Shown: in pieces, positions 6,130-53,236 of the stretch
How positions within the stretch are numbered: the stretch's first letter is position 1
How the letters are laid out: every line of letters begins with the position of its first letter
Assembly: GCA_964548205.1 (NCBI GenBank)
Contig: CAZJPJ010000002.1
Coordinates: 5,737-69,736, forward strand
Direction of reading: 5' to 3'
Length of the DNA: 64,000 nt
DNA from: an uncultured Candidatus Saccharibacteria bacterium
GTDB taxonomy: Bacteria; Patescibacteriota; Minisyncoccia; Phycocordibacterales; WO2-35-19
The notes under the pieces: generated by a model
The model's database searches: none
The model's input: the letters and a program-made list of their open reading frames with translations, nothing else
What the model was told of the DNA's origin: nothing
Program-made: the position numbers and the translations under genes

Positions 6130-7659
6130 TTACCTAGCGAATTCGATGACGCGGGATTCCCGGATGATGAGTACTTTTATTTCACCAGGATATTTTAGTT
6201 CGTTCTCTATCCTTAAAGCTATGTCTCTGGCTAAGTTTTTAGCTTCGAGGTCTGTAACATCATTGGGGTTTACAAAGACTCTTACTTCTCGGCCAGCTTG
6301 TAAAGCGTACGCTTTGTCTATGCCTTTGAAAGAAGTAGCAATGCTCTCTAGTTCTTCCAGACGTTTCAGATAATTCTCTACAGTATCTCTTCTTGCTCCT
6401 GGTCTAGAGCCAGATATAGCGTCTGCAGCTTGGACTATATAAGATTCTAATGTTTCATAAGGGTATTCTCCGTGGTGAGCCTCCATAGCCTTTACTACAA
6501 GCGGATCGGCTCCAAATTTTTGTAATATTCTTCTACCAATCTCTACATGAGTGCCTTGGATTTCGTGGTCTACAGCTTTGCCTATGTCATGTACCAGAGC
6601 CCCAGTCTTTGCTATTGCCACATTTGCTCCGATCTCAGCTGCGATCATACCCGCTATATGAGACATCTCTATAGAGTGTTGGAGTACGTTCTGGCCATAT
6701 GATGTTCTAAAGTGCAGTCGACCGAGTATCCCAATGATACGTGGATCTAAGTTGAAAACTCCGCACTCATATGCTGCTTGTTCTCCTTTTTCTTTGATTA
6801 TCTTATTTATCTCTTGCTTTGCCTTTTCAAGCATCTCCTCGATCTTTGCTGGTTGGATGCGACCGTCTTCGATAAGTTTCTCAAGAGCCACTCTTGCCAC
6901 TTGTCTACGCACAGGATCATGAGACGAAAGGGTGATAACACCCGGAGTGTCGTCGACAATTACTTCTACACCACTAGCTCTTTCAAAGGCCTTGATGTTC
7001 CTTCCTTCTTTGCCGATAATTTTACCCTTGATTTCATCAGAAGGGATCGAGACTGCTGTAGCAAATATATCTGAAGAGACTGAGTTCGCTAGGCGATGAA
7101 TAGATGTGGTCAAAATACTTTTGGCTTTTGATTCTAGTTTCTCAGCACCTTGTTGCTCAAGTTTCTGCATCCTTACTAACAGATCTTCTTCATAGTTTTT
7201 CTCTGCTTCAGAGAGTATGATTTTTTTTGCTGATTCTGGATTTAATCCAGATATCTTTTCTAGGTTCTTTATACGCTGTTGTTCTAGGGCTTCTGCTCTA
7301 TCTTTGATCTGCTTTATTTCTGTTGCTTTTTCCTTTATCTGCTCAACTTCTTTGTCTATGTCTACTTGGCGTTTATCTAAGAACTCCTCTTTCTTTATAA
7401 GGCGCTCTTCTGTTTTTGTTATCTTTTCTTCTCTTTCTTTGAATTCACTACGAAGAGAAGTTTCCATCGCGGCTACCTTTTTTTCGGCCTCCTCTAATAT
7501 CTTGGTCGCTTCTTCTTTGGCATGAAGTTCCATTTGCTTTATTCGCAGCTCCACAGAACCTCTTTGGCCGAGAGAGATGATCCATCTGAGGAAATATCCA
7601 AAACCAATACCCAAAAGGGCTGCGAAGCCTGCGAGTATTATTGCTAATTTTAGTGACAT
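6130..7659 (-). CDS. rny: Ribonuclease Y
   Basis: N-terminal TM anchor, a long coiled-coil, a KH domain (GKIIGKEGRNIKAFE) and an HD domain (HSIEMSHIAGMIAAE...HDIGK). Confidence 0.9.
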   Translation of the reverse strand: MSLKLAIILAGFAALLGIGFGYFLRWIISLGQRGSVELRIKQMELHAKEEATKILEEAEKKVAAMETSLRSEFKEREEKITKTEERLIKKEEFLDKRQVDIDKEVEQIKEKATEIKQIKDRAEALEQQRIKNLEKISGLNPESAKKIILSEAEKNYEEDLLVRMQKLEQQGAEKLESKAKSILTTSIHRLANSVSSDIFATAVSIPSDEIKGKIIGKEGRNIKAFERASGVEVIVDDTPGVITLSSHDPVRRQVARVALEKLIEDGRIQPAKIEEMLEKAKQEINKIIKEKGEQAAYECGVFNLDPRIIGILGRLHFRTSYGQNVLQHSIEMSHIAGMIAAEIGANVAIAKTGALVHDIGKAVDHEIQGTHVEIGRRILQKFGADPLVVKAMEAHHGEYPYETLESYIVQAADAISGSRPGARRDTVENYLKRLEELESIATSFKGIDKAYALQAGREVRVFVNPNDVTDLEAKNLARDIALRIENELKYPGEIKVLIIRESRVIEFAR

Positions 7660-7857
7660 GTTCTAAAAGGCGACTGGTTTCCTAGTGCTGTTTAGAGAGT
7701 ATTGTAAGTATCGTATCGAAAACATTAGTTTATAAAGTTTTTCGGTTTGTCTCAGTGTTTCTCTCGAAGTGGCAGTATCAGAAAACAAATCACATTAATT
7801 AAAGTATTAATGGTTACATTATACTTAATATTATTGTTTTGTCTATGCCTTTATGTA

Positions 7858-8454
7858 TTAGAGTACTTTGTCGATCAGGCCATACTTTTTGGCTTCGTCA
7901 GAGGACATGAAGAAGTCGCGCTCAACATCCTTTTCTATAATAGACATAGGTTGGCCGGTATTTTTAGACAATATCTTGTTTAGATTCTCTTTAGTTTTCA
8001 GTATGTGTTTTGCTGTTATGGCTATATCAGTGGCTTGGCCTCCTATACCGTCTATAAGTGGTTGATGGATCATAACTTCAGAGTTTGGTAGGGCAAAACG
8101 CTTGCCTTTAGCTCCGGCAGATAACACAATAGCAGCCCCACTTGCAGCTATACCTACGCATACAGTAGAAATATCGGGCTTTATGTGGTTCATGGTGTCG
8201 AGTATGGCAAGTGTAGAGGTGACTGAGCCCCCAGGAGAATTTATGTATATAGATATGTCTTTCTTTGGATCTTCTGACTGGAGAAAAAGGAGTTGGGCTA
8301 TAATAAGGTTTGCCATGGTGTCTTCGATCGGGCCTCCTAGGAAGATAATGCGTTCTTTTAGTAGGCGAGAATATATGTCATACGCCCTCTCTCCTTGGTG
8401 AGTCTTTTCGATAACTGTCGGCACTAGTATTGAATTGTATTCTTGTTTTTTCAT
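7858..8454 (-). CDS. clpP: ATP-dependent Clp protease proteolytic subunit
   Basis: ClpP core [24 protein letters not shown], catalytic Ser in GIAASGAAI, His in MIHQP. The start is placed at the internal Met (MKKQEY...), giving a typical ~198 aa. The longest ORF extends to 8559 and would overlap rsmE. Confidence 0.85.
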
Positions 8455-10385: not shown

Positions 10386-10694
10386 TTATTGTAGTTCTGC
10401 TTCTATGACTGCGGCACCTTGGTCTAGGTTGTTGAAATCGCTCGCATTTAGGTCTGCTTCGATTGATCCTAGATCATCATTCTCGCTTTGCATGTTTAGA
10501 GATTCAACCACCGAGTCATTTTGTGGGCCTGCCTGTTCATTGCTAACTCTGTTTTTCAAGAAATACAGGCCACCGATAATGATGAGAGCGAGTATGATAA
10601 TGACAGCTAAGAGTGGACCCATGCTTTTTTTATTCTGATCTACAGACATACTACTCACTGGTGGCATTTGGTTTGGATTCATATTGTTGTCCAT
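10386..10694 (-). CDS. Hypothetical small membrane-anchored protein
   Basis: Single TM segment LLAVIIILALIIIGGLYFL, Pro/Asn-rich N-terminus and an acidic C-terminus. No homology recognised. Confidence 0.45.
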   Translation of the reverse strand: MDNNMNPNQMPPVSSMSVDQNKKSMGPLLAVIIILALIIIGGLYFLKNRVSNEQAGPQNDSVVESLNMQSENDDLGSIEADLNASDFNNLDQGAAVIEAELQ

Positions 10695-10716
10695 TTTTTT
10701 ATATTCTTAATCTTAA

Positions 10717-11463
10717 TTAATTGTCTGAAGAATTGTTGTCTTCTGATGAAGAGCTGTCATCACTATTGTTGGTGTCGCTGTTAGAAGGATTGTCAGCGTT
10801 CTCTTCTGCTACTTTTTTCATGCTGTTTATTACATCTACAAGTCCAGCATGTGCTTCTTTGATACTCTCTTTTGCTACGTTAGCTACTTCTTTCAGTTCT
10901 GGATAAAGTGCTCTGACGTCTCCAGCGAGTACCTCTCGCGCTTTATTTTCTAGATCGTTGACGCTTTGCTTTGCTTTTTCTATTAGTTCTTGAGCTGAAG
11001 CAAGCTTGTCTCTACTCTCGGTCATATCTAGACCTCGCTCTTCCATCTTTGCGATTCTAGAATCGATTCTCTCAGACAATTTTTCCAATCTTTCTATTGC
11101 AGCATTGTATCTCTTGCTTAACTGGTCTACGAATTTTTGCAACCTTTCGGCTACCTTTTCAGATATTTCAGCCTTTCTTTCTTCTACTTTTTCTTTTAAT
11201 TCTTCTCTCTTTTCCTCCACCTTTTGTCTGATGGTATCTTTTCTGTCCTCAATTTTTCCTTCCATTTCGGTACGCTTTTGTTCCATCTCTGCTGCTCGAT
11301 CTTCTTGTCTATCCATCATCTCTTGCTTCCTTTCCTCGACTTTTTCCATCCTGTCGTTCATCCTATCTTCAATTCTTGTAGTATCCGAATCTTGCGCATG
11401 AGACACCAAAGGTATTGCAAGGCTCATTGCAAGTGTGGTGATTAATAATCTTTTAGCTTTCAT
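10717..11463 (-). CDS. Hypothetical secreted coiled-coil repeat protein
   Basis: Signal peptide MKAKRLLITTLAMSLAIPLVSHA. The body has iterated E/R/K heptad-like repeats (EDR..E.MEQKRTEMEGKIEDRKD...). The C-terminal tail is S/D/N low complexity. Confidence 0.5.
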   Translation of the reverse strand: MKAKRLLITTLAMSLAIPLVSHAQDSDTTRIEDRMNDRMEKVEERKQEMMDRQEDRAAEMEQKRTEMEGKIEDRKDTIRQKVEEKREELKEKVEERKAEISEKVAERLQKFVDQLSKRYNAAIERLEKLSERIDSRIAKMEERGLDMTESRDKLASAQELIEKAKQSVNDLENKAREVLAGDVRALYPELKEVANVAKESIKEAHAGLVDVINSMKKVAEENADNPSNSDTNNSDDSSSSEDNNSSDN

Positions 11464-12056: not shown

Positions 12057-12183
12057 AAGTTAGTTAAAAGTTAAAAGTTTTTAAAGTTATACAAGTCTGG
12101 TTATTTTAATCCAAAGAATGGACTATTTCAATGTCGCTATTTTATCACATTTCCTAACGAGGTTTATGTTTTCACTCTTCTCC

Positions 12184-13317
12184 CTATGCGCTACCCAAGT
12201 CTTCTCCTTTGACTGAGCTTATGTCGATACGCCAACCTGTTAGCTTGGCTGCCAAGCGTACATTTTGTCCTCCCTTACCTATAGCTAAAGACTGCTGGTC
12301 TTCGGCTACTACTACACTTGCTTGTTTGTCTTCTTCTTTTATATCTACAGATACTATTTTTGCTGGAGAAAGTGCTGCCTCTATAAACTCTACTGGGTCT
12401 TCTGAATATTCTATACAGTCTATCTTCTCACCTCCAAGCTCACTGGTGACTGTGGCTACACGTACGCCTCTTTGACCAACAAGAGAGCCTACTGGGTCGA
12501 TATAAGCATCATTTGTAGATACTGCCACCTTTGATCTAGAACCAGCCTCTCTGGCTATAGCTCTTATTTCTATTGTGCCGTTAGCTAATTCCGGAGCTTC
12601 ATTTTCAAACAGAGCAGCCAAAAAGCGGGGATGCGAACGAGAAAGTCTTAGCATCACACCTTTCGGACCATCTTCTACTCTGTATAGATAGGCTCTGACT
12701 CTCTCTCCTTGGCTAAACCTCTCACCTGGTATTTGTTCGTCATAAGACAATATACCTACAGCTCTCCCTATGTCTACAAAAACATTACCCCTTTCTATGC
12801 GCTGGACGAAGCCAGATACTATCTCTCCTTCTTTGCTGCCAAATTCTTTTAAAACAGAACCTCTTTCTGCTTCACGGATTTTTTGCATGATAACCTGTTT
12901 TGCAGTCTGGGAAGCTATGCGGCCATAGTCGCCCTTGTCTTCAAGAGGGAAGTTTATCTCATCACCGACTTCTGCATCTCTTTTGATTTTCTTCGCATCT
13001 TCTATGAGTATGTGATGTTCGCTATTGTAAAGCACTCTTTCGTCTCCAGATTCCTCGGCATCTTCTACTGCTTTTTCCATTTCGCTACGGTCCATGAATA
13101 CCTTGGTATCATCCACCACTATCTTTACTTGCTCCATCTCTACTTGGCCGGAGTTTTTGTCAAAATGGGCTCTTATTATCTGCCCCTTCTTGCCATATTC
13201 CTTCTTGTAAGCGGTAGCCAATGCAAGTTCGATCGCCTCGAGAACACTTTCTCGGGGTATGCCACGCTCTTCTTCTAGTTGGTCCAGAACAGAATTTATA
13301 ACTTTGAGGTCAAACAT
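12184..13317 (-). CDS. nusA: Transcription termination/antitermination factor NusA
   Basis: N-terminal domain, S1 domain (GEIVSGFVQRIERGNVFVDIG) and tandem KH domains (LAIGKGGQNVRLAAKLTGWRIDI). Confidence 0.9.
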   Translation of the reverse strand: MFDLKVINSVLDQLEEERGIPRESVLEAIELALATAYKKEYGKKGQIIRAHFDKNSGQVEMEQVKIVVDDTKVFMDRSEMEKAVEDAEESGDERVLYNSEHHILIEDAKKIKRDAEVGDEINFPLEDKGDYGRIASQTAKQVIMQKIREAERGSVLKEFGSKEGEIVSGFVQRIERGNVFVDIGRAVGILSYDEQIPGERFSQGERVRAYLYRVEDGPKGVMLRLSRSHPRFLAALFENEAPELANGTIEIRAIAREAGSRSKVAVSTNDAYIDPVGSLVGQRGVRVATVTSELGGEKIDCIEYSEDPVEFIEAALSPAKIVSVDIKEEDKQASVVVAEDQQSLAIGKGGQNVRLAAKLTGWRIDISSVKGEDLGSA

Positions 13318-13488
13318 ATTGGTAAATTAAAATTAAAGACTAAAAATTTAATGAATAAAATTTAAAGATTTGTTAAGAATAATCTCTATACTTAAACAAG
13401 AAAGCCCGCTTTCGGGCGGACTCTCGATCATTCAGTATTAAAGCCATTATATTCTTTTGTACGCATTTTGTCAACTCACACTTTTGGA

Positions 13489-13517
13489 TTGATAAAAATG
13501 TTGTGAGCCCTTAAAAT
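13489..13517 (+). promoter_or_regulatory. Sigma70-like promoter for the giant ORF: TTGATA, 17-nt spacer, TAAAAT. The transcript is probably near-leaderless
   Basis: The -35 and -10 hexamers have canonical spacing. The ATG at 13525 lies ~8 nt after the -10 element with no Shine-Dalgarno upstream. Confidence 0.35.
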
Positions 13518-13524
13518 TTGTTAT

Positions 13525-16500
13525 ATGAGTAATCCAGGGTTGGAAATTGATAAAGGAATCAAAAGGTCCCCGGTAGATAGTTTGAGGTCTTTTGTAACCG
13601 ATCATGGGTATAAGGTTGAGTTCAATAGTGAGTTTTCAAACCTTGGCGCTGAAGAAAAGAACAGAGTTGCCGATATTTGGTTAGATTATCTAAGCAGTTT
13701 ATCAGAAGATGGTTTAAAAAGTTTTTTCTCTGGCCGTCAAGATAACATGCAAGTTATATCCGCCGACACTACTTACATTACACATCAATTAAGTGATGGC
13801 GATACTGCTGAGACAGAACCAACAAGGAGAATCACTTTTGGTTTAAACCCAGATTTTAAAAGAATATCAGATTTGTTAAATAGTTTAGATATAGGATGGA
13901 ACACTTCGGATAGTTTTGCTTTAATGAATGATCGAGCAAGAAAGAGAATATTAAGGGAAGTTGCTGATCGCTTGACCGAAAATTCTGATTCAGATTTGGT
14001 TGTGGCTCTTGGTGAGTTAAAGAAAAGAGAAGTGAGTATAATGTTGGCTCCAAATTCTCCCGGTGGTCACAATGGGGTGTCTTTGTCTGAAGATGGAAAA
14101 ATTTTAAATATAGCCAACCATTTTTTTACCGGTGCGGATATTTTAAGAGCTCTTGGTTTGGGCAATTTGATTAGTGTCAAGCAAGAGAAAAAGCAGGAAC
14201 AAGATGCAGAAATAAAAGGTCTAAAACTAGACATTTATCAGAAATTAGCGGGTGTAAATGTAGAGTATGGTCTTGAAGGAGATGAATTGGCAGAAGGTCT
14301 TCATAATTTTCTTAAGGTACTCAAAACCTATAGTTTATCTGAGTTGCAGACGATAAAAGAAAGATTTTCCAATATCTTGATAACAAAAGGTGTAGATATG
14401 TATTCTGATCTTGATTTGTTATTAAGAAAAGAAAGACAGGGTAGTTTGAGAGTTGATGCAACCCTTCCTTTCGAGGCTTTGAAACGGAACATAGATATTT
14501 TGGTCAATCCACTTCTTTTGTCAGATGATGTGCCAAGTCCTGATATTCCTGTACCGGAAATAGATGCTGAGGATGCAAATCCAGATCCATTTAAGGAGGG
14601 CGTGTTCGATCAATCTGAAGAAGTCAAAACTGGTATCGAAAAATTTAAACAAGATCTTTTTGAAGCAAGTAAAGATCTGGCGCGAGCCGAGTTTGATTTT
14701 AATAAGAGTAAAAGTCCCGAGGATAGAGAAAAAATGGATGAAGCCCAGACAAGATTGTACCAAAAAAGAGCGGAACTTGACCAAGAGGTTTTGAAAAATG
14801 TTAGTTCTAGAGCCAAAGATGAAAACATCGACGGTGCTAATTTGCAGGATGTAGATATAAAAATCGGATCTATATATAGGCGTATACAGATGGAGATATT
14901 GGCAGAAGAAAGAAGAGTCTTTCTAGACGAATACAGAAGTTATAGTGAACAAAATAGAGAAAGGGGAGCCAAAGATTGGCTTATAGAAAAAGCCAAAAAA
15001 GCCTTAGGTATAAAGGGGGTACAGTGGTATCTGGGTCTAAACAAATACAAGAGGACTGCTATAAATGTTGCCATATTTAGTACTGCTGTGACTGTAGGTA
15101 CTTTTGCTACGGGAATTGGGGCTGTAGCGGCTGCGGGCACAGGAGTTTCTATGGGAGCAATCAGAGGGGTCAGAGCTTTAGGAGCTTTGGGGACGGGGTA
15201 CCTTACTAACTCTCAGGTAGAGAAGAGAGGTATTAAAACACTAAATATCCTGTCTAAAGATGCTATAGATACTCTAGAAAAAGAAGAAAGAGAAAAAATA
15301 GAAAATTCAGGTATGGATATAAATGCAAAAGCAAAAGCTTATGAAGAGTTAGAGAGACGTCTTACAAGTGAAAAGAAAAAACTGAATATATCAAAGATAG
15401 TCGCAACTCTTGCAGGTGGTGTAGGTGGAGGTGTGGGTACTGGTCTGTTGCTAGATGCGTTTTACGGAGGAACAGGAAGTTCTTCTTTGCTGAACAATCG
15501 TTCTGGTCGCGCTTCTTTTGATCCCTCTTCTCAAAATGGAAGAAATTCTTTAACAGGATTATCGCCAAAGTCTCAAGACCAGATCCCTGTTGCGGGCAAA
15601 GGTGTTACAGAAGAGGTTGTCAAACCTATAGAACTTGTACCTCCTGCACAAGAGATGATGCCGCAGGTTGCTATACAGGAAATGTTTGGAAATACTGAAG
15701 CGGTGAAGCATATAGTGGAAGCTGGAGATTCTCAATGGAAACTTCTCGAAAAGACTCTTGAAAACTATGACAAATACAAACAGCTCTCTTCTGGAGAGGG
15801 GCAAAGTGCAAATGCTGTACTGGAGGCAAAGAGAACCTATGTAATCTCAATGCTAAATCAGGAGATTCAAAAAGACCCTTCTCAATATGGAGTAGATGCT
15901 GATGGGCTAAAGGTTGGCGATAAAGTTGATTATACAAAGTTGTTTGAAAACAAAGCTTTAGTGGATAGGGCTATAAATGAAGCAGAAAATCTAAAACCAA
16001 ATCAGATAGAGAATATTATTAAGAATAATGCTCAAGTAAAAAATTGGGTAGAAAAGCATTCCGGAGAAGCTCTTGATGAGAGTAAGGTAAGCGAAATTAT
16101 TTCTAACGACACTTCTAAGACTTCTGGGGGTATAAAATCACTATATACAGAATCCAGTGGTTCTACGGGCGCTGAAGGTGTTGATAATGAAGATGTGAAT
16201 GCTCGTGAGAGCACCACAGTTGCCCCAGATAAGGGGGGAGTAGAAGAAGTTGCAACTCCACAAGCAGCGGGTGCCAATGCGACGAAAGAAGCTGCTAAAG
16301 AAGTAGAGTTGCTCAAGAACAGTGAATACTTTGATGTATACAAGAAAGATATTGGTGAATCGTTGGTCCAATTCTTAGAATTAAAGGAACAAATCTTAAA
16401 ATTGGATTTACCGCAAAATGTTTCTAAGAATCTTGTAGCAAAAATTGATTACCTAACAAACAGTATAGAGGTTTTAAAAGAAAACCTGAATACATTGACG

Positions 16501-17223
16501 ACAGAATCGTATAATCAGCAAATTGAAAACATAGCAAATGAGTATGAACAACTTATCAATGAAGCTCGCAAGGCTATATCTGACGAAACTAAGTCAAGAG
16601 GTCTAATGGAAGATTTATCTAATGAAAAAAGATTACTTGCCAATCTAATAGACAATAAAAAGCCTAGTGTTGGTAACAGCGGTTTAGATGAGCAGAGAAA
16701 TATGATTCACAATGAAATAGCTGCTGCAAAGGAGAGATTGGTCGCTTTGCAATCACAGACTAAAGACAATGTAGTAGAGATGCCGACGAGGAATGCAAAT
16801 CTTGAGAGGACTATGTATGGAGATATTAGTGATATAGAAAGAATAGGAAAAACATTTGAACAAGAATTTAGAAATATATATGACCAAAATGGTTGGTTGA
16901 GACGTACGTCTGGAATTGATACTAAGGAGGGCCGATGGATGCTCTCTCAGAATTTTGACAAGATTTTGAAATTTGCCACAACTGGTGATGCACAAAAATC
17001 TGGATTGGCAGCTGAAGCTATAAACACCATATCTGGATCTCCCAAACATCAAGCTTTTCTTAATGAGATAAGAGATTTGCATAGTATGGCAAAAGAAAAT
17101 GGTATTGCAATAACAGTAGCCCCCAACACTGGTGTTCGAGAAGGTATGATGAAGTTGGTCGAATCTATTATGAGATTCCAAAATAACGCATCAGCTACAA
17201 ATGTGTTGCCTAAAGTGGCATAA
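13525..17223 (+). CDS. Giant hypothetical membrane protein of 1232 aa with no recognisable domains
   Basis: Uninterrupted 3.7-kb ORF. Central Gly/Ala-rich hydrophobic segments (AINVAIFSTAVTVGTFATGIGAVAAAGTGVSMGAI; IVATLAGGVGGGVGTGLLL). Long predicted coiled-coil regions on both sides and a Ser/Gly-rich linker. Confidence 0.6.
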   Translation: MSNPGLEIDKGIKRSPVDSLRSFVTDHGYKVEFNSEFSNLGAEEKNRVADIWLDYLSSLSEDGLKSFFSGRQDNMQVISADTTYITHQLSDGDTAETEPTRRITFGLNPDFKRISDLLNSLDIGWNTSDSFALMNDRARKRILREVADRLTENSDSDLVVALGELKKREVSIMLAPNSPGGHNGVSLSEDGKILNIANHFFTGADILRALGLGNLISVKQEKKQEQDAEIKGLKLDIYQKLAGVNVEYGLEGDELAEGLHNFLKVLKTYSLSELQTIKERFSNILITKGVDMYSDLDLLLRKERQGSLRVDATLPFEALKRNIDILVNPLLLSDDVPSPDIPVPEIDAEDANPDPFKEGVFDQSEEVKTGIEKFKQDLFEASKDLARAEFDFNKSKSPEDREKMDEAQTRLYQKRAELDQEVLKNVSSRAKDENIDGANLQDVDIKIGSIYRRIQMEILAEERRVFLDEYRSYSEQNRERGAKDWLIEKAKKALGIKGVQWYLGLNKYKRTAINVAIFSTAVTVGTFATGIGAVAAAGTGVSMGAIRGVRALGALGTGYLTNSQVEKRGIKTLNILSKDAIDTLEKEEREKIENSGMDINAKAKAYEELERRLTSEKKKLNISKIVATLAGGVGGGVGTGLLLDAFYGGTGSSSLLNNRSGRASFDPSSQNGRNSLTGLSPKSQDQIPVAGKGVTEEVVKPIELVPPAQEMMPQVAIQEMFGNTEAVKHIVEAGDSQWKLLEKTLENYDKYKQLSSGEGQSANAVLEAKRTYVISMLNQEIQKDPSQYGVDADGLKVGDKVDYTKLFENKALVDRAINEAENLKPNQIENIIKNNAQVKNWVEKHSGEALDESKVSEIISNDTSKTSGGIKSLYTESSGSTGAEGVDNEDVNARESTTVAPDKGGVEEVATPQAAGANATKEAAKEVELLKNSEYFDVYKKDIGESLVQFLELKEQILKLDLPQNVSKNLVAKIDYLTNSIEVLKENLNTLTTESYNQQIENIANEYEQLINEARKAISDETKSRGLMEDLSNEKRLLANLIDNKKPSVGNSGLDEQRNMIHNEIAAAKERLVALQSQTKDNVVEMPTRNANLERTMYGDISDIERIGKTFEQEFRNIYDQNGWLRRTSGIDTKEGRWMLSQNFDKILKFATTGDAQKSGLAAEAINTISGSPKHQAFLNEIRDLHSMAKENGIAITVAPNTGVREGMMKLVESIMRFQNNASATNVLPKVA

Positions 17224-17243: not shown

Positions 17244-17543
17244 ATGGATGAGAATTTAAAGAAAAAATTGATAGAGGATTTCAACCTAAGCAAGATGAGC
17301 AAAGGCGAGCAAGAAGAGATGATAGATAAGATAGGCACTATGCTCTTTGAAGCAGTGCTCGAGCGTTCGCTCGATGATATGGACGAAGATACTCTCTATA
17401 AGTTTGAAAATGAGCTCTCTGACCCTAAGGGTGATTATGACATCGTTATCGCATTTCTAAAGAAGAATGTTAAAGACTTCAATGACATCGTCTCAACTGA
17501 GATGGCTCGCCTCAAACGCGCCACTGCCGGCATTTTTGCATAA
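17244..17543 (+). CDS. Hypothetical small acidic helical protein
   Basis: 99-aa ORF starting 20 nt after the giant ORF. No family recognised. Confidence 0.45.
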   Translation: MDENLKKKLIEDFNLSKMSKGEQEEMIDKIGTMLFEAVLERSLDDMDEDTLYKFENELSDPKGDYDIVIAFLKKNVKDFNDIVSTEMARLKRATAGIFA

Positions 17544-28704: not shown

Positions 28705-28758
28705 TTTTTAAAACTCTTGCTTTCAAATTTATAGACTTTAAACTTTTAACTAAATCTC

Positions 28759-39405: not shown

Positions 39406-39441
39406 CTTTATAGACTTTTAACTTTAAAACTTTTAACTAAA

Positions 39442-42867: not shown

Positions 42868-43968
42868 ATGAGTTTTTTGGATAAAATATTTAAGAGTAAA
42901 ACTAATAATGCTATAGGCATCGACATAGGGTCTTCCTCTATAAAAGTAGTGGAGCTAAAGAGGGATGGTGATAAAGCTGTTCTCGGTACGTACGGGGAGC
43001 TATCCTTGGGTCCATATGGAGGAGTTTCTATAGGTCAATCTACAAATCTTCCAACAGAAAAGTTGATTGAGGCAGTAACTGATTTACTAAAGGAAAAAGA
43101 GGTTGCCATAACTACTCTAAAAGCTGGTATCGCTATACCTTTCAAAGCTAGTCTTCTTTCGGTAATTGAGATGCCAGAGTTGAGTAAGTCAGAGCTTGAT
43201 TCTATGGTACCTATAGAAGCTCGGAAATACATTCCAGTGCCTATAGCAGACGTTACTATCGATTGGTCTGTTATACCAAAGAAAGAGAATGAAGATGAAC
43301 CTAGCAATGCTGTTTCAAAAAAGACAATGGAAATACTGCTTGTTGCTATACACAATAATATACTTAACCAGTACAATGAAATTGTTGAAAAAACTGGCTT
43401 AGAGGCAAAGTTTTCAGAGATAGAGGTGTTCAGTTCTATGAGATCGGTGGTAGAAAGTACTTCTGGCCCAATCATGATATTAGATATGGGCGCTTCTACC
43501 ACAAAGCTTTATATTATCGATAGGGGTATTGTTCTTTATTCTCATACCGTAAACCATGGCTCCCAAGAAATAACTGGAAATATAGCCAGATCACTAAATA
43601 TATCTGTAGAAGACGCTGAAATCCAGAAGAGGGCAGGGGACGTTTCTAGGACGATAGGAGGTGCTGATATAAAGGAAGCAGTTTCAAATGTTATCGATCG
43701 CATTTTTTCTGAAACCAACCGCTTTTTATTTGAATATCAAAAAAAACACAACAGGAATATAAAGTCGGTGACTCTCATTGGAGGTGGGTCAGCGTTAAAA
43801 GGCTTTAAAAAGTTGGCCGAGGATAATTTTAAGGTTGAGATAATATCAGGTAATCCATTTGAAAAAATTGTTGTACCAGCATTTTTGGAGGATGTCTTAA
43901 GACAAACTGGTCCAGAATTTGCAGTTTCTGCTGGTGTAGCATTGAGAGCACTGACCGAATTAGAATGA
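42868..43968 (+). CDS. pilM: Type IV pilus assembly protein PilM (actin-like ATPase)
   Basis: N-terminal AIGIDIGSSSIKVVEL..., ASKHA-fold motifs, ...TLIGGGSALKG. Confidence 0.85.
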   Translation: MSFLDKIFKSKTNNAIGIDIGSSSIKVVELKRDGDKAVLGTYGELSLGPYGGVSIGQSTNLPTEKLIEAVTDLLKEKEVAITTLKAGIAIPFKASLLSVIEMPELSKSELDSMVPIEARKYIPVPIADVTIDWSVIPKKENEDEPSNAVSKKTMEILLVAIHNNILNQYNEIVEKTGLEAKFSEIEVFSSMRSVVESTSGPIMILDMGASTTKLYIIDRGIVLYSHTVNHGSQEITGNIARSLNISVEDAEIQKRAGDVSRTIGGADIKEAVSNVIDRIFSETNRFLFEYQKKHNRNIKSVTLIGGGSALKGFKKLAEDNFKVEIISGNPFEKIVVPAFLEDVLRQTGPEFAVSAGVALRALTELE

Positions 43969-44030
43969 TGGATAAGTAATTAACACAATTCTTCGACCAT
44001 ACAGCTATATTTGTTCTATAATTTAATAGT

Positions 44031-44726
44031 ATGGCTCCAGAATTTAGATCTTCATTTATACCCAAAAATACTCAATCTGCCGAAGTCTTCCAAAAGAAAG
44101 GAGATGGTCCGTTTGGTTGGGTTGCTCTTTTGTTTTTTATATTGTCTTTGCTATTGAGTGGAGCGCTTTTTGCTTACAAAACTATTCTGTCTCGTAATAT
44201 AGCGTCTCTAAAGAATGAATTAGAACTCAAAGAGTCGTCTATAGACTATAAAACTATTGAGACGATGGCTACTTTTAGTAATCAGCTCAAGGGTGCTAAA
44301 GATGTCTTGGCTAGACATATCATAGTATCTAGTTTTCTAGAAATACTTAACGACAGTACTCCATCGACTGTCAGATTTACTGATTTTCTATACAACATTG
44401 ATCAAGAGGGTAGGGTGTTTGTGGTCATGCCAGGAGAAGCTAAGGATTATTCTAGTATCGCTTTGTTAGATAGAGAATTGAAGAAATCAAAATACCTGAA
44501 AGAAGTTAATTTTGGTCAGTTAGATTCTAGGAAGGGGATGGTAGCTTTTGAGTTAAATGTCTCTGTTGATCCTAGTATTGCTGCCTATAAAGCAGAGACG
44601 GAAGAGCCTGTAGATGTTGTTGGGAATAGGTCAGACGATACTTCGGTAGAAAATGCTGATGATATAGACTTATCAGAATTAGAGCAGAGCATGGATTTTT
44701 TACCAGAGTCATTTGATGATATATAA
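44031..44726 (+). CDS. pilN: PilN-like type IV pilus assembly protein (bitopic)
   Basis: Single TM (WVALLFFILSLLLSGALFAY) followed by a coiled-coil/periplasmic domain. Position after pilM. Confidence 0.6.
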   Translation: MAPEFRSSFIPKNTQSAEVFQKKGDGPFGWVALLFFILSLLLSGALFAYKTILSRNIASLKNELELKESSIDYKTIETMATFSNQLKGAKDVLARHIIVSSFLEILNDSTPSTVRFTDFLYNIDQEGRVFVVMPGEAKDYSSIALLDRELKKSKYLKEVNFGQLDSRKGMVAFELNVSVDPSIAAYKAETEEPVDVVGNRSDDTSVENADDIDLSELEQSMDFLPESFDDI

Positions 44727-45303
44727 AAATAAATCAATGAGAAGTTCAAGTGCATTGTCATATCTCATACTCACCATAGCTGTAGTCTATGCTTTTGCTT
44801 TACCTCAATATCAAAATGTAAACGTATTGTCTGTAGAAAAAGAAGAAGTTACTAAGAAACTGGATAAGGTCGATGTGATTGAAGACAAGAAGAATGCTCT
44901 ACTTGCTGAGTTCAATGAGATTAGTTCTAGAGAAGTAAACATGGTAAAAACTCTAGTTCCTGAATCTTTTGATTATGTAAAATTGGCTTACGATATTGAT
45001 TCGGCCGCTTCTAGGTACGGTATCTCTATATCTAATGTCGCTACTCAAGACAATGAAGTTACTTCAGTTTCAGAGACAGAAATGGTAAACAGCAGTCCTT
45101 ATAGATCAAGGGAGGTTTATGTATCTTTCGAGGCAACTTATGACGCTTTTGGCAAATTGGTGACTGATTTGGAAAAAAGTCTTAGGGTTTTGGATATAAT
45201 TTCTCTGAAAATTACAACAAAAGAGGGATCGATTTATGACTATGAATTAGGCTTTAGAACTCATTGGGCCAACAATCTAAATGTAAATCAAGATGAACAA
45301 TAA
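44713..45303 (+). CDS. pilO: PilO-like type IV pilus assembly protein (bitopic)
   Basis: Single TM (ALSYLILTIAVVYAFALP), then a coiled-coil and a ferredoxin-like C-terminal region. Overlaps pilN by 14 nt. Confidence 0.55.
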   Translation: MMIYKNKSMRSSSALSYLILTIAVVYAFALPQYQNVNVLSVEKEEVTKKLDKVDVIEDKKNALLAEFNEISSREVNMVKTLVPESFDYVKLAYDIDSAASRYGISISNVATQDNEVTSVSETEMVNSSPYRSREVYVSFEATYDAFGKLVTDLEKSLRVLDIISLKITTKEGSIYDYELGFRTHWANNLNVNQDEQ

Positions 45304-45550
45304 TATTGCAATATCTATAATCATAGCTGCAGCCCTTATAATATACAAAATATTTTTTGTGGTACCTGTAGATGATAGTATCCCGATTACTTCAGCAAAA
45401 ATAGACCAAGCTTTAATAATGATAGATAGTATAAACTTCGATCGTCAGGTTTTTAGTGATCCCAACCTAGGTTCCCTAAAAAGTTTGGAGATTCCTATAA
45501 ATGAAGTTTCAGTAGGTAAGAGTAATCCTTTTGGATCTATTATAAAGTAA
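45293..45550 (+). CDS. Hypothetical small membrane-anchored protein in the pilus locus (possibly PilP-like)
   Basis: N-terminal TM (IAISIIIAAALIIYKIFFVV). Overlaps pilO by 11 nt. Confidence 0.4.
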   Translation: MNNNIAISIIIAAALIIYKIFFVVPVDDSIPITSAKIDQALIMIDSINFDRQVFSDPNLGSLKSLEIPINEVSVGKSNPFGSIIK

Positions 45551-45557
45551 TACAAAA

Positions 45558-47327
45558 ATGAGCGTTCTTGATATCTTGGTAAAATCAGGTGTTCTCAGCC
45601 AAAGAGATGCTTCGATTCTTAAATCAAAAGAAGGGGCAAGAGAAGAATTGGACAAACAACTTCTTTCTTTGGGAGTAAGTGAGACTGATCTTTTGAGTGC
45701 AAAGTCAGAATATTTTGGTGTGCCTTTGAAAAAAGTAGAATACTCAAGAATTGATCAGAAGATCCTAGATTATATACCAGAAGAGTCGGCAGTTTATTAT
45801 CAGTTTGTACCCGTTGGTCTAAAAGACGGCATTATAGAAGTGGGTATGGTGGATCCGGATAATATATCTGCGCGCGATGCTTTAAACTTTATATCTTCAA
45901 GGATAAATCTACCTTTTAAGATATTCCTTATATCTTTTGAAGATTTTGAAAAAACAGTCTCTCTGTACAAGGGTCTTTCAGGTGAAGTCACAAAAGCTCT
46001 TTCTGAGCTTGAGAACGAGCTTGTTTTGGAATCAAAAGAAATCAAAGGTGAAGAAAAAAAAGATAGTAAAGAAGCTGGGAAGGATGCTTTTGATGATAAT
46101 CAAGAAGAAAATATAATAGGGGACACTAAAGATCCAACAAAAATAGAAAATGCCCCTGTAACAAAGATTGTGGCCACAATATTGCGGTATGCCACAGACG
46201 GTAGAGCGTCAGATATCCATATAGAACCCACCATTAATAATCTAAGAGTGCGCTTTAGAGTTGACGGCATTATGAATACAAGCTTGGTCTTGCCCGTAAG
46301 GGTACATAGCGCAGTCGTAGCTAGGATAAAAATCATGTCAAATATGAGACTGGATGAAAAAAGAAAACCTCAAGATGGCAGGTTTTCTGCGCGGTTGGAT
46401 GAAAGGAAGATTGACTTTCGTGTCTCCACATTTCCTACTTACTATGGTGAAAAGATAGTGATTAGAATCCTGGATCAGGATAAAGGGGTTCTCAAACTTG
46501 AAGAATTGGGCTTGAGTAAAGAAAATCTCCAAAAAATAAAAAATGCTCTAGAGAGGCCCTACGGTCTAATACTCATATCTGGCCCTACAGGTAGTGGTAA
46601 ATCCACAACACTTTATTCTATGTTAAACGAAGTTGATAAAGATCATAAAAACGTCCTCTCTCTTGAAGATCCGATAGAATACAATATCGAAGGCATGAGC
46701 CAATCGCAAGTAAGGGCAGAAATAGGTTATACATTTGCTTCGGGGCTACGTACTACATTGCGACAGGACCCGGATATTATAATGGTGGGTGAGATAAGAG
46801 ATAAAGAGACTGCCCAGCTTGCAATACAGGCGGCCCTTACTGGCCACTTAGTATTTTCGACTATTCACACTAACAATGCTATAGGTGTCGTGCCGAGGCT
46901 TATAGATATGGGTGTAGATCCGTATCTCATCGCACCTACTTTGGTTCTTGCTATCGCTCAAAGATTGGGCCGAGCTCTTTGTAAGGGTGCAGGCAAGCCA
47001 ATGAAAGTCAAAGGTACTGCTATTGGTGCTATGATCGAAAAACAGTTTTCTGATTTACCAACTGAGTATCTATCGAAAATCCAGTTTGGTGATGAGGTGT
47101 GTGAGGTTTCTCCAGGACCTGATTGTCCTAATGGTGTTAGGGGCAGGGTTGCAGTGATGGAAATACTCGAAGTCGATAAAGATTTGCAACAGATTATCCT
47201 GAATACACCCACTGAGGAGGCTATATGGAAGCATGCCAGAAGTAAGGGCATGTTGACTATGAAAGAGGATGCAATACTAAGAGCTTTCAACAAGCAGATC
47301 CCGTTCGAAGAAGTGAATTCTCTCTAA
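45558..47327 (+). CDS. pilB: Type IV pilus assembly ATPase PilB (GspE family)
   Basis: N-terminal GSPII_E_N domain. Walker A LISGPTGSGKSTTLYSML, Asp box, Walker B, His box, tetracysteine-like CEVSPGPDCPNG. Confidence 0.9.
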   Translation: MSVLDILVKSGVLSQRDASILKSKEGAREELDKQLLSLGVSETDLLSAKSEYFGVPLKKVEYSRIDQKILDYIPEESAVYYQFVPVGLKDGIIEVGMVDPDNISARDALNFISSRINLPFKIFLISFEDFEKTVSLYKGLSGEVTKALSELENELVLESKEIKGEEKKDSKEAGKDAFDDNQEENIIGDTKDPTKIENAPVTKIVATILRYATDGRASDIHIEPTINNLRVRFRVDGIMNTSLVLPVRVHSAVVARIKIMSNMRLDEKRKPQDGRFSARLDERKIDFRVSTFPTYYGEKIVIRILDQDKGVLKLEELGLSKENLQKIKNALERPYGLILISGPTGSGKSTTLYSMLNEVDKDHKNVLSLEDPIEYNIEGMSQSQVRAEIGYTFASGLRTTLRQDPDIIMVGEIRDKETAQLAIQAALTGHLVFSTIHTNNAIGVVPRLIDMGVDPYLIAPTLVLAIAQRLGRALCKGAGKPMKVKGTAIGAMIEKQFSDLPTEYLSKIQFGDEVCEVSPGPDCPNGVRGRVAVMEILEVDKDLQQIILNTPTEEAIWKHARSKGMLTMKEDAILRAFNKQIPFEEVNSL

Positions 47328-47383
47328 ATATTATCAACACTAGTCAAGGGTTATGTTGCTCTTGGTAGTGTATAATTGTTTTC

Positions 47384-47773
47384 ATGGCATCAGATAGTAA
47401 ATCGAAAATCATGATTGTAGATGATGATGATTTTCTCTTAAACATGTACTCTCTAAAGTTCAGCAAGTCAGGTGCAGAGGTTCTAGTTTCTAGATCTGGC
47501 TCTGAGCTATTGGACCATTTGAAATCTGGAGTTGATCCAGATGTGATATTGCTAGATATTGTTTTGCCCGGTATGAATGGTATAGAGATACTTGAGGAGA
47601 TTAGAAAAAATAAATTTGCACCAGATTCAAAAATAGTAATGCTAACAAATCAAAATGATGAATCAGAGATTGCGAAGGCAAACGCTCTTGGTGTTGCTGG
47701 TTATATTGTGAAGTCTTCTGAAACTCCGTCTGAGGTGGTAGAAAATGTTCTTAGTATTTTAAAATCAAAATAA
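47384..47773 (+). CDS. Response regulator receiver protein (PilH/PilG-like, REC only)
   Basis: KIMIVDDDDF...ILLDIVLPGMNG...MLTNQ...GYIVKS. Confidence 0.8.
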   Translation: MASDSKSKIMIVDDDDFLLNMYSLKFSKSGAEVLVSRSGSELLDHLKSGVDPDVILLDIVLPGMNGIEILEEIRKNKFAPDSKIVMLTNQNDESEIAKANALGVAGYIVKSSETPSEVVENVLSILKSK

Positions 47774-47774
47774 T

Positions 47775-48827
47775 ATGGGTAGTAATATAGACACCCTCAT
47801 AGACCTAGTGGTCAAAGAAGGGGCATCGGACCTTCACTTAGCAGAAGGTAGGCCTCCGTATATAAGAATATCTGGAGAGCTTTTGCCTCTGCACAAAAGT
47901 GGGGCTATGACTCATCAGCATATAGAAAAAATAATAGACAGTATGCTTTCTGATGCAAAGAAAAAGGACTTTATCGAAAGGCAAAGTGCAGACTTGTCAT
48001 ACAACCATGCAAATTCTAGATTCCGAGTACATGTTAGTGTCGAACAGCAGCGTCTCTGTATTACTTTTAGGCATATAAAAGAGGATATACCAACTCTCTC
48101 TGAATTGAACCTTCCGGATTCTTTGGCAGATTTTTCTCGCAGAAAGTCTGGATTTTTCCTAGTGGTAGGTCCAACTGGAAACGGTAAATCTACCACACTA
48201 GCCTCACTCATAAACTTGATCAATCAAGAGAGACTTGAGAAGGTTGTGACTATAGAAGACCCTATAGAATACATATTCAAGCAAGACAAGTCTTTGATTT
48301 TCCAAAGAGAAGTAGGTATCGATACTCCAAGTTTCTCTCAAGCCCTAAATGATTCTTTCAGAGACGATATAAATGTTATAATGGTTGGCGAGATTCGTAA
48401 TCCAGAAACTATATCTACAGCTGTAACAGCCGCTGAAACTGGTCACCTTGTATATTCGACACTCCATACCAATAGCGCTGCTCAAACGGTAGATCGTATT
48501 ATAGATGCCTTTCCTGCAAACCAGCAAAATCAAATTCGCATTCAGCTCGCCGCTTCGCTTGCAGGTATCTTTTCGCAAAGATTGGTTCCGAAAATTTCTG
48601 GTGGCTTGGTTCCGGTTTTTGAGTTGCTTATTAACAACACCGCCATATCAAACCTTATCAGAGATAAACGCACTCATGAAATAAATGCAGTTATAGAGAC
48701 TAGTTCAAGTGAAGGGATGATTGATTTTAACAGGTGTCTAATAGAAAAGGTCCAAGCGGGTGACATATCTGTTGAGAATGCTTACTTGTATTCAAACAAC
48801 CCTAAAACTCTAGAAAAAATGTTATAA
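47775..48827 (+). CDS. pilT: Twitching motility (pilus retraction) ATPase PilT
   Basis: Walker A VVGPTGNGKSTTLASLI. PilT-specific AIRNLIRE-like motif (AISNLIRDKRTHEINAVIETS). Confidence 0.9.
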   Translation: MGSNIDTLIDLVVKEGASDLHLAEGRPPYIRISGELLPLHKSGAMTHQHIEKIIDSMLSDAKKKDFIERQSADLSYNHANSRFRVHVSVEQQRLCITFRHIKEDIPTLSELNLPDSLADFSRRKSGFFLVVGPTGNGKSTTLASLINLINQERLEKVVTIEDPIEYIFKQDKSLIFQREVGIDTPSFSQALNDSFRDDINVIMVGEIRNPETISTAVTAAETGHLVYSTLHTNSAAQTVDRIIDAFPANQQNQIRIQLAASLAGIFSQRLVPKISGGLVPVFELLINNTAISNLIRDKRTHEINAVIETSSSEGMIDFNRCLIEKVQAGDISVENAYLYSNNPKTLEKML

Positions 48828-48829
48828 AG

Positions 48830-50032
48830 ATGAAATTTGTTTACAAAACAATTGACAAAGATGGAAAGTTTCAGTCAGGAGAGATTGATTCTTTTAGTAT
48901 AGATACTGCTATAAGCAACTTGCAAAAGCGAGGGTTAGTTATATCTTCCATAAAACCAAAAGATAGTGGTAATTTTGTAGATAAAATACCTTTTTTGAAC
49001 ACGGTTTCAAACAAAGATATTGTGATTCTATCAAGGCAGATATCTACTTTGTTTGAGGCTCAAGTTTCAGCTTTGAGAGCGTTCAAGCTTATCGGTACAG
49101 AAAATACAAATCCAATACTTAGGAAACATTTGTTGCAAGTAGTAGATGATTTACAGGGTGGTAGCTCTATATCCAATGCTTTAGCCAAGCATCCGCAAGT
49201 TTTTTCTGATTTTTATGTAAACATGGTTCGATCAGGTGAAGAATCCGGTAAACTAGATGAAACGTTTTCTTACCTAGCGGATTACATGGATAGAACTTAC
49301 GAAGTGACCTCAAAAGCTAAGAACGCTCTGATTTATCCCGCCTTTGTTATATTCACCTTCATTGCAGTTATGGTCCTAATGTTTACGATTATTATCCCAA
49401 AGATTGGGGTTATCATAAAAGATTCTGGACAGGAGATACCGATTTATACAAAAGCGGTGTTTGCTGTCAGCGATTTTATGATCAACAATGGCGTTATAAT
49501 GGTAATCGGTATTTTGCTTATCGCAGGCCTTGGCTATTGGTATATAAAGACAGAAGAGGGGGGTAAACAGTTTTCAGTTATGAGGCTATATGTGCCGTAC
49601 GTTGGTGATTTGTTTAAGAAACTATATCTGTCTAGGTTTTGTGACAACATGAGTACTATGATCAGCTCAGGTATTCCGATGCTCAAATCTATAGAAGTTA
49701 CTTCTGCTATTATTGATAATGTCATATATAAAGACTTATTGAATTCTGCGTTGATCAAAGTAAAATCTGGTACTTCTCTTTCAGAATCGATATCTGATTC
49801 TGAGGTTATGCCGAAAATATTGACGCAAATGGTAAGGGTGGGAGAAGAGACTGGTGAGCTAGGTAAAATAATGAAGACCATGGCTAAGTTTTACCAGCGA
49901 GAGGTGATAAATGCGGTAGATACTCTGGTTGGACTTATAGAGCCAGTCATGATTGTATCTCTCGGTATTGGGGTTGGTATTTTGCTCGCTTCTGTGCTTG
50001 TGCCTATATACAATGTGGCTTCGGGTCTATAA
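48830..50032 (+). CDS. pilC: Type IV pilus inner-membrane platform protein PilC (GspF family)
   Basis: Two T2SF repeats with TM segments. ...MVRVGEETGELGKIMKTMAKFYQRE. Confidence 0.9.
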   Translation: MKFVYKTIDKDGKFQSGEIDSFSIDTAISNLQKRGLVISSIKPKDSGNFVDKIPFLNTVSNKDIVILSRQISTLFEAQVSALRAFKLIGTENTNPILRKHLLQVVDDLQGGSSISNALAKHPQVFSDFYVNMVRSGEESGKLDETFSYLADYMDRTYEVTSKAKNALIYPAFVIFTFIAVMVLMFTIIIPKIGVIIKDSGQEIPIYTKAVFAVSDFMINNGVIMVIGILLIAGLGYWYIKTEEGGKQFSVMRLYVPYVGDLFKKLYLSRFCDNMSTMISSGIPMLKSIEVTSAIIDNVIYKDLLNSALIKVKSGTSLSESISDSEVMPKILTQMVRVGEETGELGKIMKTMAKFYQREVINAVDTLVGLIEPVMIVSLGIGVGILLASVLVPIYNVASGL

Positions 50033-50158
50033 AGTCATTATCCACATTCTGGTCATAAATTTCTCTCCACTTGTTTATAATCTATATTAGCTTAATAGCA
50101 AGTTTGGTCGATTGCTTAAGCTTCTCTCTCGAGAGGGACATTATAAAAAAATACTATT

Positions 50159-50590: not shown

Positions 50591-50640
50591 TTTTTGATTG
50601 CTACACGAAAACCCCTCTTTCTGTAATGGTTTGAGGGGTT

Positions 50641-52115: not shown

Positions 52116-52116
52116 A

Positions 52117-53232: not shown

Positions 53233-53236
53233 GATT

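Follow-up and report, generated by a model that had tools for sequence, protein, structure and literature searches.

The BIG locus

The 64,000-nucleotide stretch of contig CAZJPJ010000002.1 analyzed here (hereafter the window) contains an uninterrupted open reading frame (ORF), running from an ATG start to a TAA stop at 13525..17223 on the plus strand, that encodes a protein of 1232 amino acids (aa). Sequence comparison places this protein, which we call BIG, in an uncharacterised family that diverges rapidly and occurs in Parcubacteria/Paceibacteria genomes and in similar metagenomic contigs. At a GC content of ~39%, about 6.5% of random codons are stops, and 1232 stop-free codons would arise by chance with a probability of ~1e-36. 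The longest ORF overlapping BIG has at most 142 aa. BIG is divergent from nusA (12184..13317, minus strand), with a spacer of 207 bp between the two genes, and is followed after 20 nt by a co-oriented ORF for an acidic, helical protein of 99 aa (17244..17543). Beyond this small ORF lie tuf, with a promoter-like site of its own, and the S10 ribosomal operon. An earlier reading of the bare sequence (the original prediction) had described a single 3.7-kb ORF, its divergence from nusA and the co-oriented helical ORF downstream, and each of these statements was borne out. An identical BIG protein is encoded on an independent assembly (Logan SRR15237813, locus L081) and on a 136-kb NCBI contig. No family in Pfam, PHROGs, NCBIfam or PADLOC matches BIG as a whole protein, and there are no mobile-element genes among its flanking genes, which are housekeeping genes.

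A rapidly diverging family

An exhaustive HMMER search, in which no word index was used, retrieved 265 cluster representatives at E<=1e-3, of which 143 remained at E<=1e-10 and 34 at E<=1e-30; BIG, first taken for an orphan, can no longer be regarded as one. The relatives range in length from 234 to 1705 aa and are unnamed in their sources or named "hypothetical protein", with a single exception. This exception (P0146; L086:67-5184, 1705 aa) is deposited in GenBank as "DNA translocase FtsK" (MDP3965044.1). Pfam finds in it only a 60-residue FtsK-gamma winged helix at aa 302-362, and the name looks like an annotation error arising from domain fusion. Word-indexed searches with full-length BIG or with A1, one of our module-level alignments A1-A5, gave no match, and A2 retrieved only a 133-aa fragment, results that are no proof of orphan status. 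In the protein database, BIG's own 90% cluster is represented by a 35-aa fragment. A scan of genome contigs with BIG itself likewise gave no match, and homologs were reached by way of NusA as an anchor.

NusA anchoring yielded 80 syntenic loci from Zambryskibacteria-like Parcubacteria. Every locus with a NusA at least 76% identical and with sufficient upstream sequence carries a large ORF of 880-1436 aa in the position of BIG, and the order tuf, small ORF, BIG and divergent nusA is kept, so that conservation and synteny in related genomes are established and the family is lineage-specific, as had been supposed. Over aa ~450-900 and ~1030-1217, the identity between BIG and the syntenic large ORFs is 26-31%. 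Since EF-Tu (87-91%), NusA (76-82%) and the small ORF (49-58%) are far more alike in the same genome pairs, BIG is evolving very fast. All three conserved modules were present in 70 of the 151 family members sampled.

In relatives further removed, the place divergent from nusA is taken by large unannotated ORFs (~584 and ~404 aa) similar in size to pilB and pilC. Two small genes at 10386-11463 (minus strand) are kept beside nusA across the clade. The product of the first has 248 aa, an N-terminus resembling a signal peptide and helical repeats of apolipoprotein type (Pfam Apolipoprotein, E 2e-6, below threshold), and the second gene encodes a 102-aa single-pass membrane protein. Both are also fast-evolving, with identities of 30-43% and 52-68%, respectively. 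At L006:5090-9815, a 521-aa ORF adjoins nusA, and a 556-aa opposite-strand gene (6554-8224) separates it from a 459-aa ORF that contains only the LysM-derived module and the C-terminal domain described below. This arrangement would reflect an insertion that interrupts the family gene or else a further truncated form.

Domain organization of BIG

Alignment of the family members shows a modular protein, to the extent that conserved blocks define modules: a variable N-terminal arm, a conserved head composed of a LysM-derived module and a new C-terminal domain, and between the two a conserved helix and two hydrophobic segments (Table 1). By the same comparison the hydrophobic region is an optional part of the family.

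Table 1. Features of the BIG locus, with positions in the window.
Feature	Coordinates	Strand	Description
BIG promoter	13489..13517	+	-35-like TTGATA, 17-nt spacer, -10 TAAAAT; 10/12 consensus matches
BIG coding sequence	13525..17223	+	Stop codon included; from ORF list and homologs
Hypervariable N-terminal arm, aa 1-350	13525..14574	+	No signal peptide, no conserved relatives
Conserved helical region, aa 351-500	14575..15024	+	EEWxEF...KxxxWYLG; precedes the hydrophobic segments
WYLGLxK..R motif and Gly/Ala-rich hydrophobic segment 1, aa 501-560	15025..15204	+	~30-36 aa, basic on both flanks
Charged Lys/Glu-rich loop, aa 561-619	15205..15381	+	Conserved; ends in a basic cluster
Gly-rich hydrophobic segment 2, aa 620-647	15382..15465	+	Family consensus AGAGAGLLAGLAE
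Ser/Gly/Pro-rich linker, aa 648-722	15466..15690	+	Degenerate copy of (N/S)RLPRKGFEP; here NNRSGRASFDP
LysM-derived module, aa 723-866	15691..16122	+	HxVxxGDSxWKLL ... GDKxDFxKLFE; long helical insertion and helical extension
Acidic Ser/Gly/Thr-rich linker (866-935) and helical insert, aa 867-1055	16123..16689	+	Insert specific to this genome
All-helical C-terminal domain, aa 1056-1232	16690..17220	+	Extreme C-terminus conserved; PKVA here, family mostly K/R-A-A
DUF5663-family 99-aa acidic helical protein	17244..17543	+	No signal peptide, no hydrophobic segment

The arm is unaligned in A1; no best stretch in the exhaustive search begins before query residue 289 (protein residue ~321), and a local phmmer search with the arm gave one marginal match only. 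Conservation sets in with the helical region, and a profile named preTM_TM matches aa 351-659. The two Gly/Ala-rich hydrophobic segments noted earlier in mid-protein are confirmed, at aa 510-552 and 620-647, and are separated by the charged loop with the family consensus WSxEE...LKNS..SLEEKSK...KERKK..KK. The RLPRKGFEP motif of the following linker is retained in forms of the family that are without hydrophobic segments. The acidic Ser/Gly-rich linker was likewise recovered, at aa 866-935, where 13 D/E residues stand against 6 K/R. The insert of aa 867-1055 is missing from the other members of A1, and a local search returned no relatives of it. Among 84 members with the C-terminal domain, the terminal tripeptide is KAA in 26, RAA in 7, MAA in 6 and KVA in 3. 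No transfer-messenger RNA gene was found in the window with which the terminal K-A-A could be compared as an ssrA-like ClpXP degron or a tail-specific-protease signal.

The long coiled-coil-prone regions that had been proposed were not recovered: in a crude heptad scan only aa 360-394 and 964-1023 were heptad-like, and not clearly above shuffled sequences. An SMC or coiled-coil ATPase identity was rejected with this limited heptad signal and with the lack of any SMC, AAA or P-loop match to BIG in Pfam and NCBIfam. A phage tape-measure protein was rejected as well, as PHROGs gave no match, the sole Pfam tape-measure match concerned 1 of 12 modules at E 0.027, and the neighbors are nusA, tuf and the S10 operon. 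Clear homology to either family, which the original prediction had named as a possible refutation, thus finds no support in Pfam, NCBIfam or PHROGs.

The LysM-derived module and the C-terminal domain

No recognisable domain had been seen in BIG, a view that does not hold at the family level, where the region corresponding to aa 723-866 is related to LysM. The Pfam LysM model (PF01476) matches 16 of 44 diverse family modules (best E 4.1e-6), and the NCBIfam models for YneA, "peptidoglycan-binding protein LysM" and SafA match 14, 12 and 9 of the 44, respectively. A family profile run against PDB sequences reached the LysM of LytE at E 0.008. The window's own module has no Pfam LysM match at E<=1. 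A LysM-derived start of the module is therefore supported for the family, and for the window copy by transitivity rather than directly.

An AlphaFold2 model of a 158-residue segment (window aa 715-872), built like the other model on alignments of proteins from the exhaustive search, reached a predicted local distance difference test score (pLDDT) of 91 and a predicted template modelling score (pTM) of 0.83. In the model, short strands at segment positions 14-16 and 86-88 enclose ~70 residues of helix, with a 25-residue helix inside the insertion, and three more helices follow the second strand. This is not the compact ~45-residue beta-alpha-alpha-beta fold of LysM, and the BIG module is, as modelled, at most an elaborated LysM derivative and not a canonical LysM. 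Foldseek found no match for it in the PDB (best E 0.41, no LysM structure) or in BFVD. The C-terminal domain was modelled with a pLDDT of 85 and a pTM of 0.65, and its best Foldseek hit in the PDB, at E 0.17, is no match. Both domains are thus predicted to be confidently folded, and they appear to be without a solved structural relative.

Other resemblances were judged to be chance. The second half of the module, aa 795-870 (nt 15907-16134), aligns over 74 residues with the C-terminal domain of E. coli RecA (WLKDNPE...IEKKVRELL against WVKEHPGE...EKVEEIL). The likeness has an E of ~0.07 per single chain and is confined to E. coli-type RecA, and RecA is absent from the Foldseek results; values of 7e-18 arise only from PDB chains with 4-6 fused RecA copies. 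A match of the DUF5663 profile to Rpb1 (E 0.007, PDB sequences) was treated in the same way, and the profile searches of PDB sequences otherwise gave chance-level matches only.

Obligate pairing with DUF5663

The 99-aa protein downstream of BIG matches Pfam DUF5663 (PF18908) over profile positions 2-82 of 84 with 17.0 bits (E 0.0092), a score that does not reach the Pfam gathering score of 23.7 bits. It is 49-58% identical to its syntenic orthologs, and the partners of distant BIG-family members have confident precomputed DUF5663 matches. We accept its membership in DUF5663 by orthology.

A DUF5663 gene stands directly 3' of the BIG gene in the window and in 11 syntenic genomes, and also in distant members with unrelated neighbors and after the split forms described below. 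When metagenomes were approached from the side of DUF5663, an ORF with the BIG-family C-terminal domain was found to end 1-137 nt upstream in 41 of 41 informative loci, those whose upstream sequence was long enough; in the four exceptions the contig breaks off within 115 nt. On this evidence of gene order, the BIG family and DUF5663 form an obligate gene pair, and the functional coupling of BIG to the small ORF is supported. Searches of the literature on DUF5663 and Zambryskibacteria found nothing relevant, no paper in the literature searched mentions the DUF5663 family, and the pairing is, as far as we found, previously undescribed.

In at least 8 related loci, a type IV pilin gene (GFTLIELL) follows DUF5663 (L006:4026-4553 on the minus strand, L091:2897-3448, L093, L094, L109, L124, L132 and L134), and it sits between DUF5663 and tuf where the flank is long enough. 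The window's own type IV pilus cluster lies ~25 kb away, at 42868-53740.

A conserved leaderless-type promoter

The -10 box of the BIG promoter ends 7 nt before the ATG, and no Shine-Dalgarno motif is present upstream of the start. In related loci (L014, L012, L015, L016, L007, L004, L010, L090 and L091) a TATAAT likewise ends 7 nt before the start, while the distance is 8 nt in L003, 9 nt in L001 and 11 nt in L008. The spacing is thus 7-9 nt in about 12 of 14 homologous loci, and the N-terminal residues are alike across the loci that share it. The leaderless start proposed for BIG is convincing because this spacing recurs in relatives, and the comparison places the BIG-DUF5663 pair behind a conserved leaderless-type promoter from which both genes would be transcribed. 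Across the window, a Shine-Dalgarno-like motif was seen in only 6 of ~85 genes, and a -10-like hexamer lies 5-10 nt before the start codon in 21 of them (for example at 23369, 25815, 26777, 44031 and 47384). Leaderless initiation seems to be common in this organism, and judged from these counts the start of BIG is ordinary for the genome and no peculiarity of this gene.

Another motif, CTTTTAACTAA, often present as a tandem CTTTTAAC repeat, occurs at 265-275, 12060-12070 (minus strand), 28743-28753 and 39430-39440, and ends 1-5 nt before the starts of the genes at 280, 12056 (pyrophosphatase), 28759 (nusG-like) and 39442 (rpsC-like). It has 9 matches at <=1 mismatch compared to 3.6 expected, and may be a translation-initiation or regulatory element that replaces the Shine-Dalgarno sequence.

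The divergent nusA has a perfect sigma-70 consensus promoter (TTGACA, 17 nt, TATAAT) at 13474..13446 on the minus strand. About 20 nt past it, in the nusA 5' leader, lies a GC-rich hairpin followed by a T-run (13425..13400, minus strand). All 11 related loci compared share the stem UCCGC/GCGGA and the U-run, with variable loop and flanks; as the stem is invariant, it offers no covariation. An Rfam scan of the BIG/nusA intergenic region, the hairpin included, gave no match. The hairpin looks like a conserved leader terminator or attenuator and possibly serves NusA autoregulation.

Hydrophobic segments, split forms and cellular location

The N-terminus of BIG (MSNPGLEIDKGIKRSPVDS...) is hydrophilic, as are those of its homologs, and the first hydrophobic window lies at aa 200-218. 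By inspection and hydropathy alone, no signal peptide, lipobox, sorting or other export signal was found in BIG. The 19-residue Kyte-Doolittle peaks of the two hydrophobic segments are 1.56 and 1.67. Their summed Hessa values are +2.8 and +2.7 for segments 1 and 2 (family medians +2.8 and +5.2), with none below +1. Membrane controls from the window (SecY, PilC, PilD, the 102-aa anchor and an RNase Y-like anchor) gave values of -0.9 to -5.2, and the soluble proteins EF-Tu and NusA gave +8.7 and +12.6. On the Wimley-White octanol scale, segment 1 falls below zero in 73% of members and segment 2 in none. We consider segment 1 a borderline candidate for a transmembrane or re-entrant segment, and segment 2 appears unlikely to span a membrane alone. 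The original prediction of a membrane protein is right about the presence of hydrophobic segments, but their Hessa values are marginal compared to those of the membrane controls.

The arms of relatives offer a second line of evidence. P0067 carries a DnaJ domain in its N-terminal arm (E 9.8e-15) and P0099 a J-like HPD motif, and an FtsK-gamma domain is present in the arm of P0146 (E 1.7e-23) and of one more relative (E 3.6e-4). J and FtsK-gamma domains have cytoplasmic functions and point to a cytoplasmic arm.

A sub-lineage of split forms bears on the head (L010:6466-7809 on the minus strand, L090:2031-3757 and L091:293-2601; also L094, L101-L103, L124 and L135). These forms have lost the conserved helix and both hydrophobic segments, and they have no hydrophobic window >0.8 and no signal peptide. 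They retain the leaderless promoter, the RLPRKGFEP motif, the head and DUF5663. The split consists of a TAA and an ATG that abut or overlap; it falls within the LysM-derived module, directly behind the first strand and helix of the module, and both halves are open. The C-terminal part is under purifying selection, with a ratio of nonsynonymous to synonymous substitution rates (dN/dS) of ~0.16 between L010 and L090 and with frames intact across a dS of >1.8. DUF5663, itself without an export signal, is kept exactly where only the head is kept, which argues that it most likely works with the head and in the same compartment. Taken together, we judge that the head of BIG is probably cytoplasmic; that it lies outside is a good deal less likely, though a chance worth keeping in mind.

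Proposed function and alternative explanations

We tentatively propose that BIG is a cytoplasmic, membrane-associated scaffold that works with DUF5663, a reading we prefer without holding it to be established. The whole protein would face the cytoplasm, and segment 1, with its ~30 residues and basic residues on both sides, would dip into or weakly span the membrane as a tether. The head would bind DUF5663, and the variable arm would recruit lineage-specific clients, which in some relatives may be DnaK, by way of the J domain, or DNA, by way of the FtsK-gamma domain. More speculatively, the process organised in this way at the inner membrane face could be the synthesis of the envelope or of peptidoglycan precursors, or cell division. 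A role in envelope or division is suggested because of the LysM ancestry and because genes for these processes stand beside distant members: MreB, FtsQ (POTRA), two GT4 and two PMT_2 glycosyltransferases, UppS, a polyprenyl synthase and a TraG/VirD4-like ATPase. Cell-envelope scaffolding, which had been raised as one candidate function, is a live possibility. In one distant sub-clade (L082:12053-15005 and L087:12431-15417), two further genes stand behind the BIG-DUF5663 pair, one for a conserved acidic protein of 155 aa and one for a protein of 826 aa that has DUF8128 and TraG/TrwB-like (VirD4-type ATPase) signatures; the window contains no relatives of these two proteins. It is this region that the genes for MreB, FtsQ, the GT4 and PMT_2 glycosyltransferases, UppS and the polyprenyl synthase flank.

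Several points weigh against the cytoplasmic scaffold. LysM domains are overwhelmingly extracytoplasmic, and the LysM-derived module therefore argues for a location outside. A basic cluster just before segment 2 would give this segment an in-to-out orientation by the positive-inside rule, and many predictors would call segments with Kyte-Doolittle values of 1.5-2.0 transmembrane. Genes for envelope and division accompany the family in one sub-clade only, the neighbors in the window being nusA and tuf. Furthermore, the physical interaction of the head with DUF5663 is predicted from gene pairing, and the scaffold role is inferred from architecture, not from a homolog of known function.

The same LysM matches (Pfam, NCBIfam YneA/LysM/SafA and LytE among PDB sequences) and the basic cluster, after which neutral or acidic residues follow segment 2, would be expected of a bitopic envelope tether. 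In such a protein the arm would be cytoplasmic, segment 1 (or both segments in a three-pass arrangement) would cross the membrane, and the module and C-terminal domain would bind peptidoglycan outside, connecting the wall with clients in the cytoplasm in the manner of a reversed FimV/HubP or of a DamX/FtsN-type protein. The Pro/Ser/Thr-rich spacers after the hydrophobic region and the recurrent pilin gene just downstream of the pair in relatives are consistent with it as well. However, purifying selection maintains the module and C-terminal domain in forms without segments or signal peptide, and these are exactly the two parts with which DUF5663, itself lacking an export signal, is retained. 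Segment 2 is too polar to span alone in any member, Foldseek retrieved no LysM structure, and the window's own module scores no LysM match. We regard a tether of this kind as unlikely, but as an explanation to be taken seriously.

The cytoplasmic scaffold also has a more ambitious form, which we consider a long shot. BIG and DUF5663 would be a Parcubacteria-specific, obligate two-protein cytoplasmic module with two previously unseen folds, in which the repurposed LysM-derived domain recognises a ligand inside the cell, such as lipid-linked precursors of peptidoglycan or glycans at the inner membrane face. The pair would organise envelope synthesis or division where many canonical scaffolds are missing, with the arm as a plug-in site for J or FtsK-gamma clients.

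A giant surface protein with which an episymbiotic bacterium of the Candidate Phyla Radiation (CPR) attaches to its host cell had been suggested for BIG, and its large size, lineage restriction, very fast divergence (26-31% identity) and low-complexity linkers would fit. This function fares poorly against the remaining evidence and seems very improbable to us: there is no signal peptide, lipobox or sorting signal, there are no adhesin-type repeats or beta-rich domains, with both modelled domains helical, the hydrophobic segments score as marginal, variation is greatest in the arm, which in homologs carries cytoplasmic J and FtsK-gamma domains, soluble split forms exist under selection, and the obligate partner is of cytoplasmic type. 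A non-functional gene, whether a chance ORF, a decaying pseudogene or a domesticated phage or mobile-element protein (tape-measure or SMC-like), could be suspected from the missing match of the whole protein in curated libraries and the extreme length variation of homologs, from 446 to >1700 aa, but it is effectively refuted by the negligible chance of 1232 open codons at 39% GC, the conservation of position, promoter and partner in dozens of genomes, the purifying selection on the conserved half, the housekeeping flanks and the absence of PHROGs, PADLOC, SMC or tape-measure matches.

Large "hypothetical" proteins of CPR bacteria and Parcubacteria are routinely read as adhesins of episymbiosis; the evidence on BIG points in the opposite direction, to an intracellular modular scaffold whose small partner is strictly conserved, and cautions that "membrane" and "surface" are not to be inferred from Kyte-Doolittle hydropathy and size alone. 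If the proposal is true, an uncharacterised family and DUF5663 receive a name and a partner that can be tested, and two confidently predicted domains without a solved structural relative are added. The split forms without hydrophobic segments would then be a natural experiment on which parts matter. BIG alone does not answer a long-standing question, and its function is inferred.

Comparison with known systems

The sequences of the family are already deposited as hypothetical proteins. New, as far as we found, are the definition of the family, its obligate pairing with DUF5663, the split variant without segments and the two domains without solved relatives.

In 16 of 44 members of the BIG family, the start of the module, with the pattern V-x-x-G-D-S-x-W-K-L-L ... 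G-D/Q-K-x-D-F, matches models of LysM proteins (PF01476; B. subtilis LytE, YneA and SafA, E. coli Kbp/YgaU), and the module model has two short strands flanking helices. Compared to these proteins, only ~33 residues match, and the BIG module has a ~25-residue helix inserted and ~60 helical residues appended. It may be located in the cytoplasm, a rare place for LysM for which Kbp and SafA provide precedents.

FimV/HubP proteins resemble BIG in kind only. They too are large, fast-evolving, acidic, low-complexity scaffolds with a LysM-type module, a membrane anchor, a conserved terminal domain and a link to type IV pili. In contrast to BIG, which has no signal peptide, their LysM is N-terminal and periplasmic and follows a signal sequence, so that the order of domains is reversed, and they have no DUF5663 partner. 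No model in NCBIfam or Pfam matched BIG to this family, and with the reversed order membership was rejected, leaving an analogy.

ZipA, the N-terminus and linker of FtsK, and DjlA combine a weak membrane tether and long variable linkers with a conserved globular head, as BIG would, and some BIG relatives have a J domain, as DjlA does, or else an FtsK-gamma domain. A relationship of sequence or fold between these proteins and BIG was not detected. As a whole, the nearest known kinds, by analogy of architecture only, appear to be LysM-containing scaffolds and membrane-tethered adaptors with long variable linkers.

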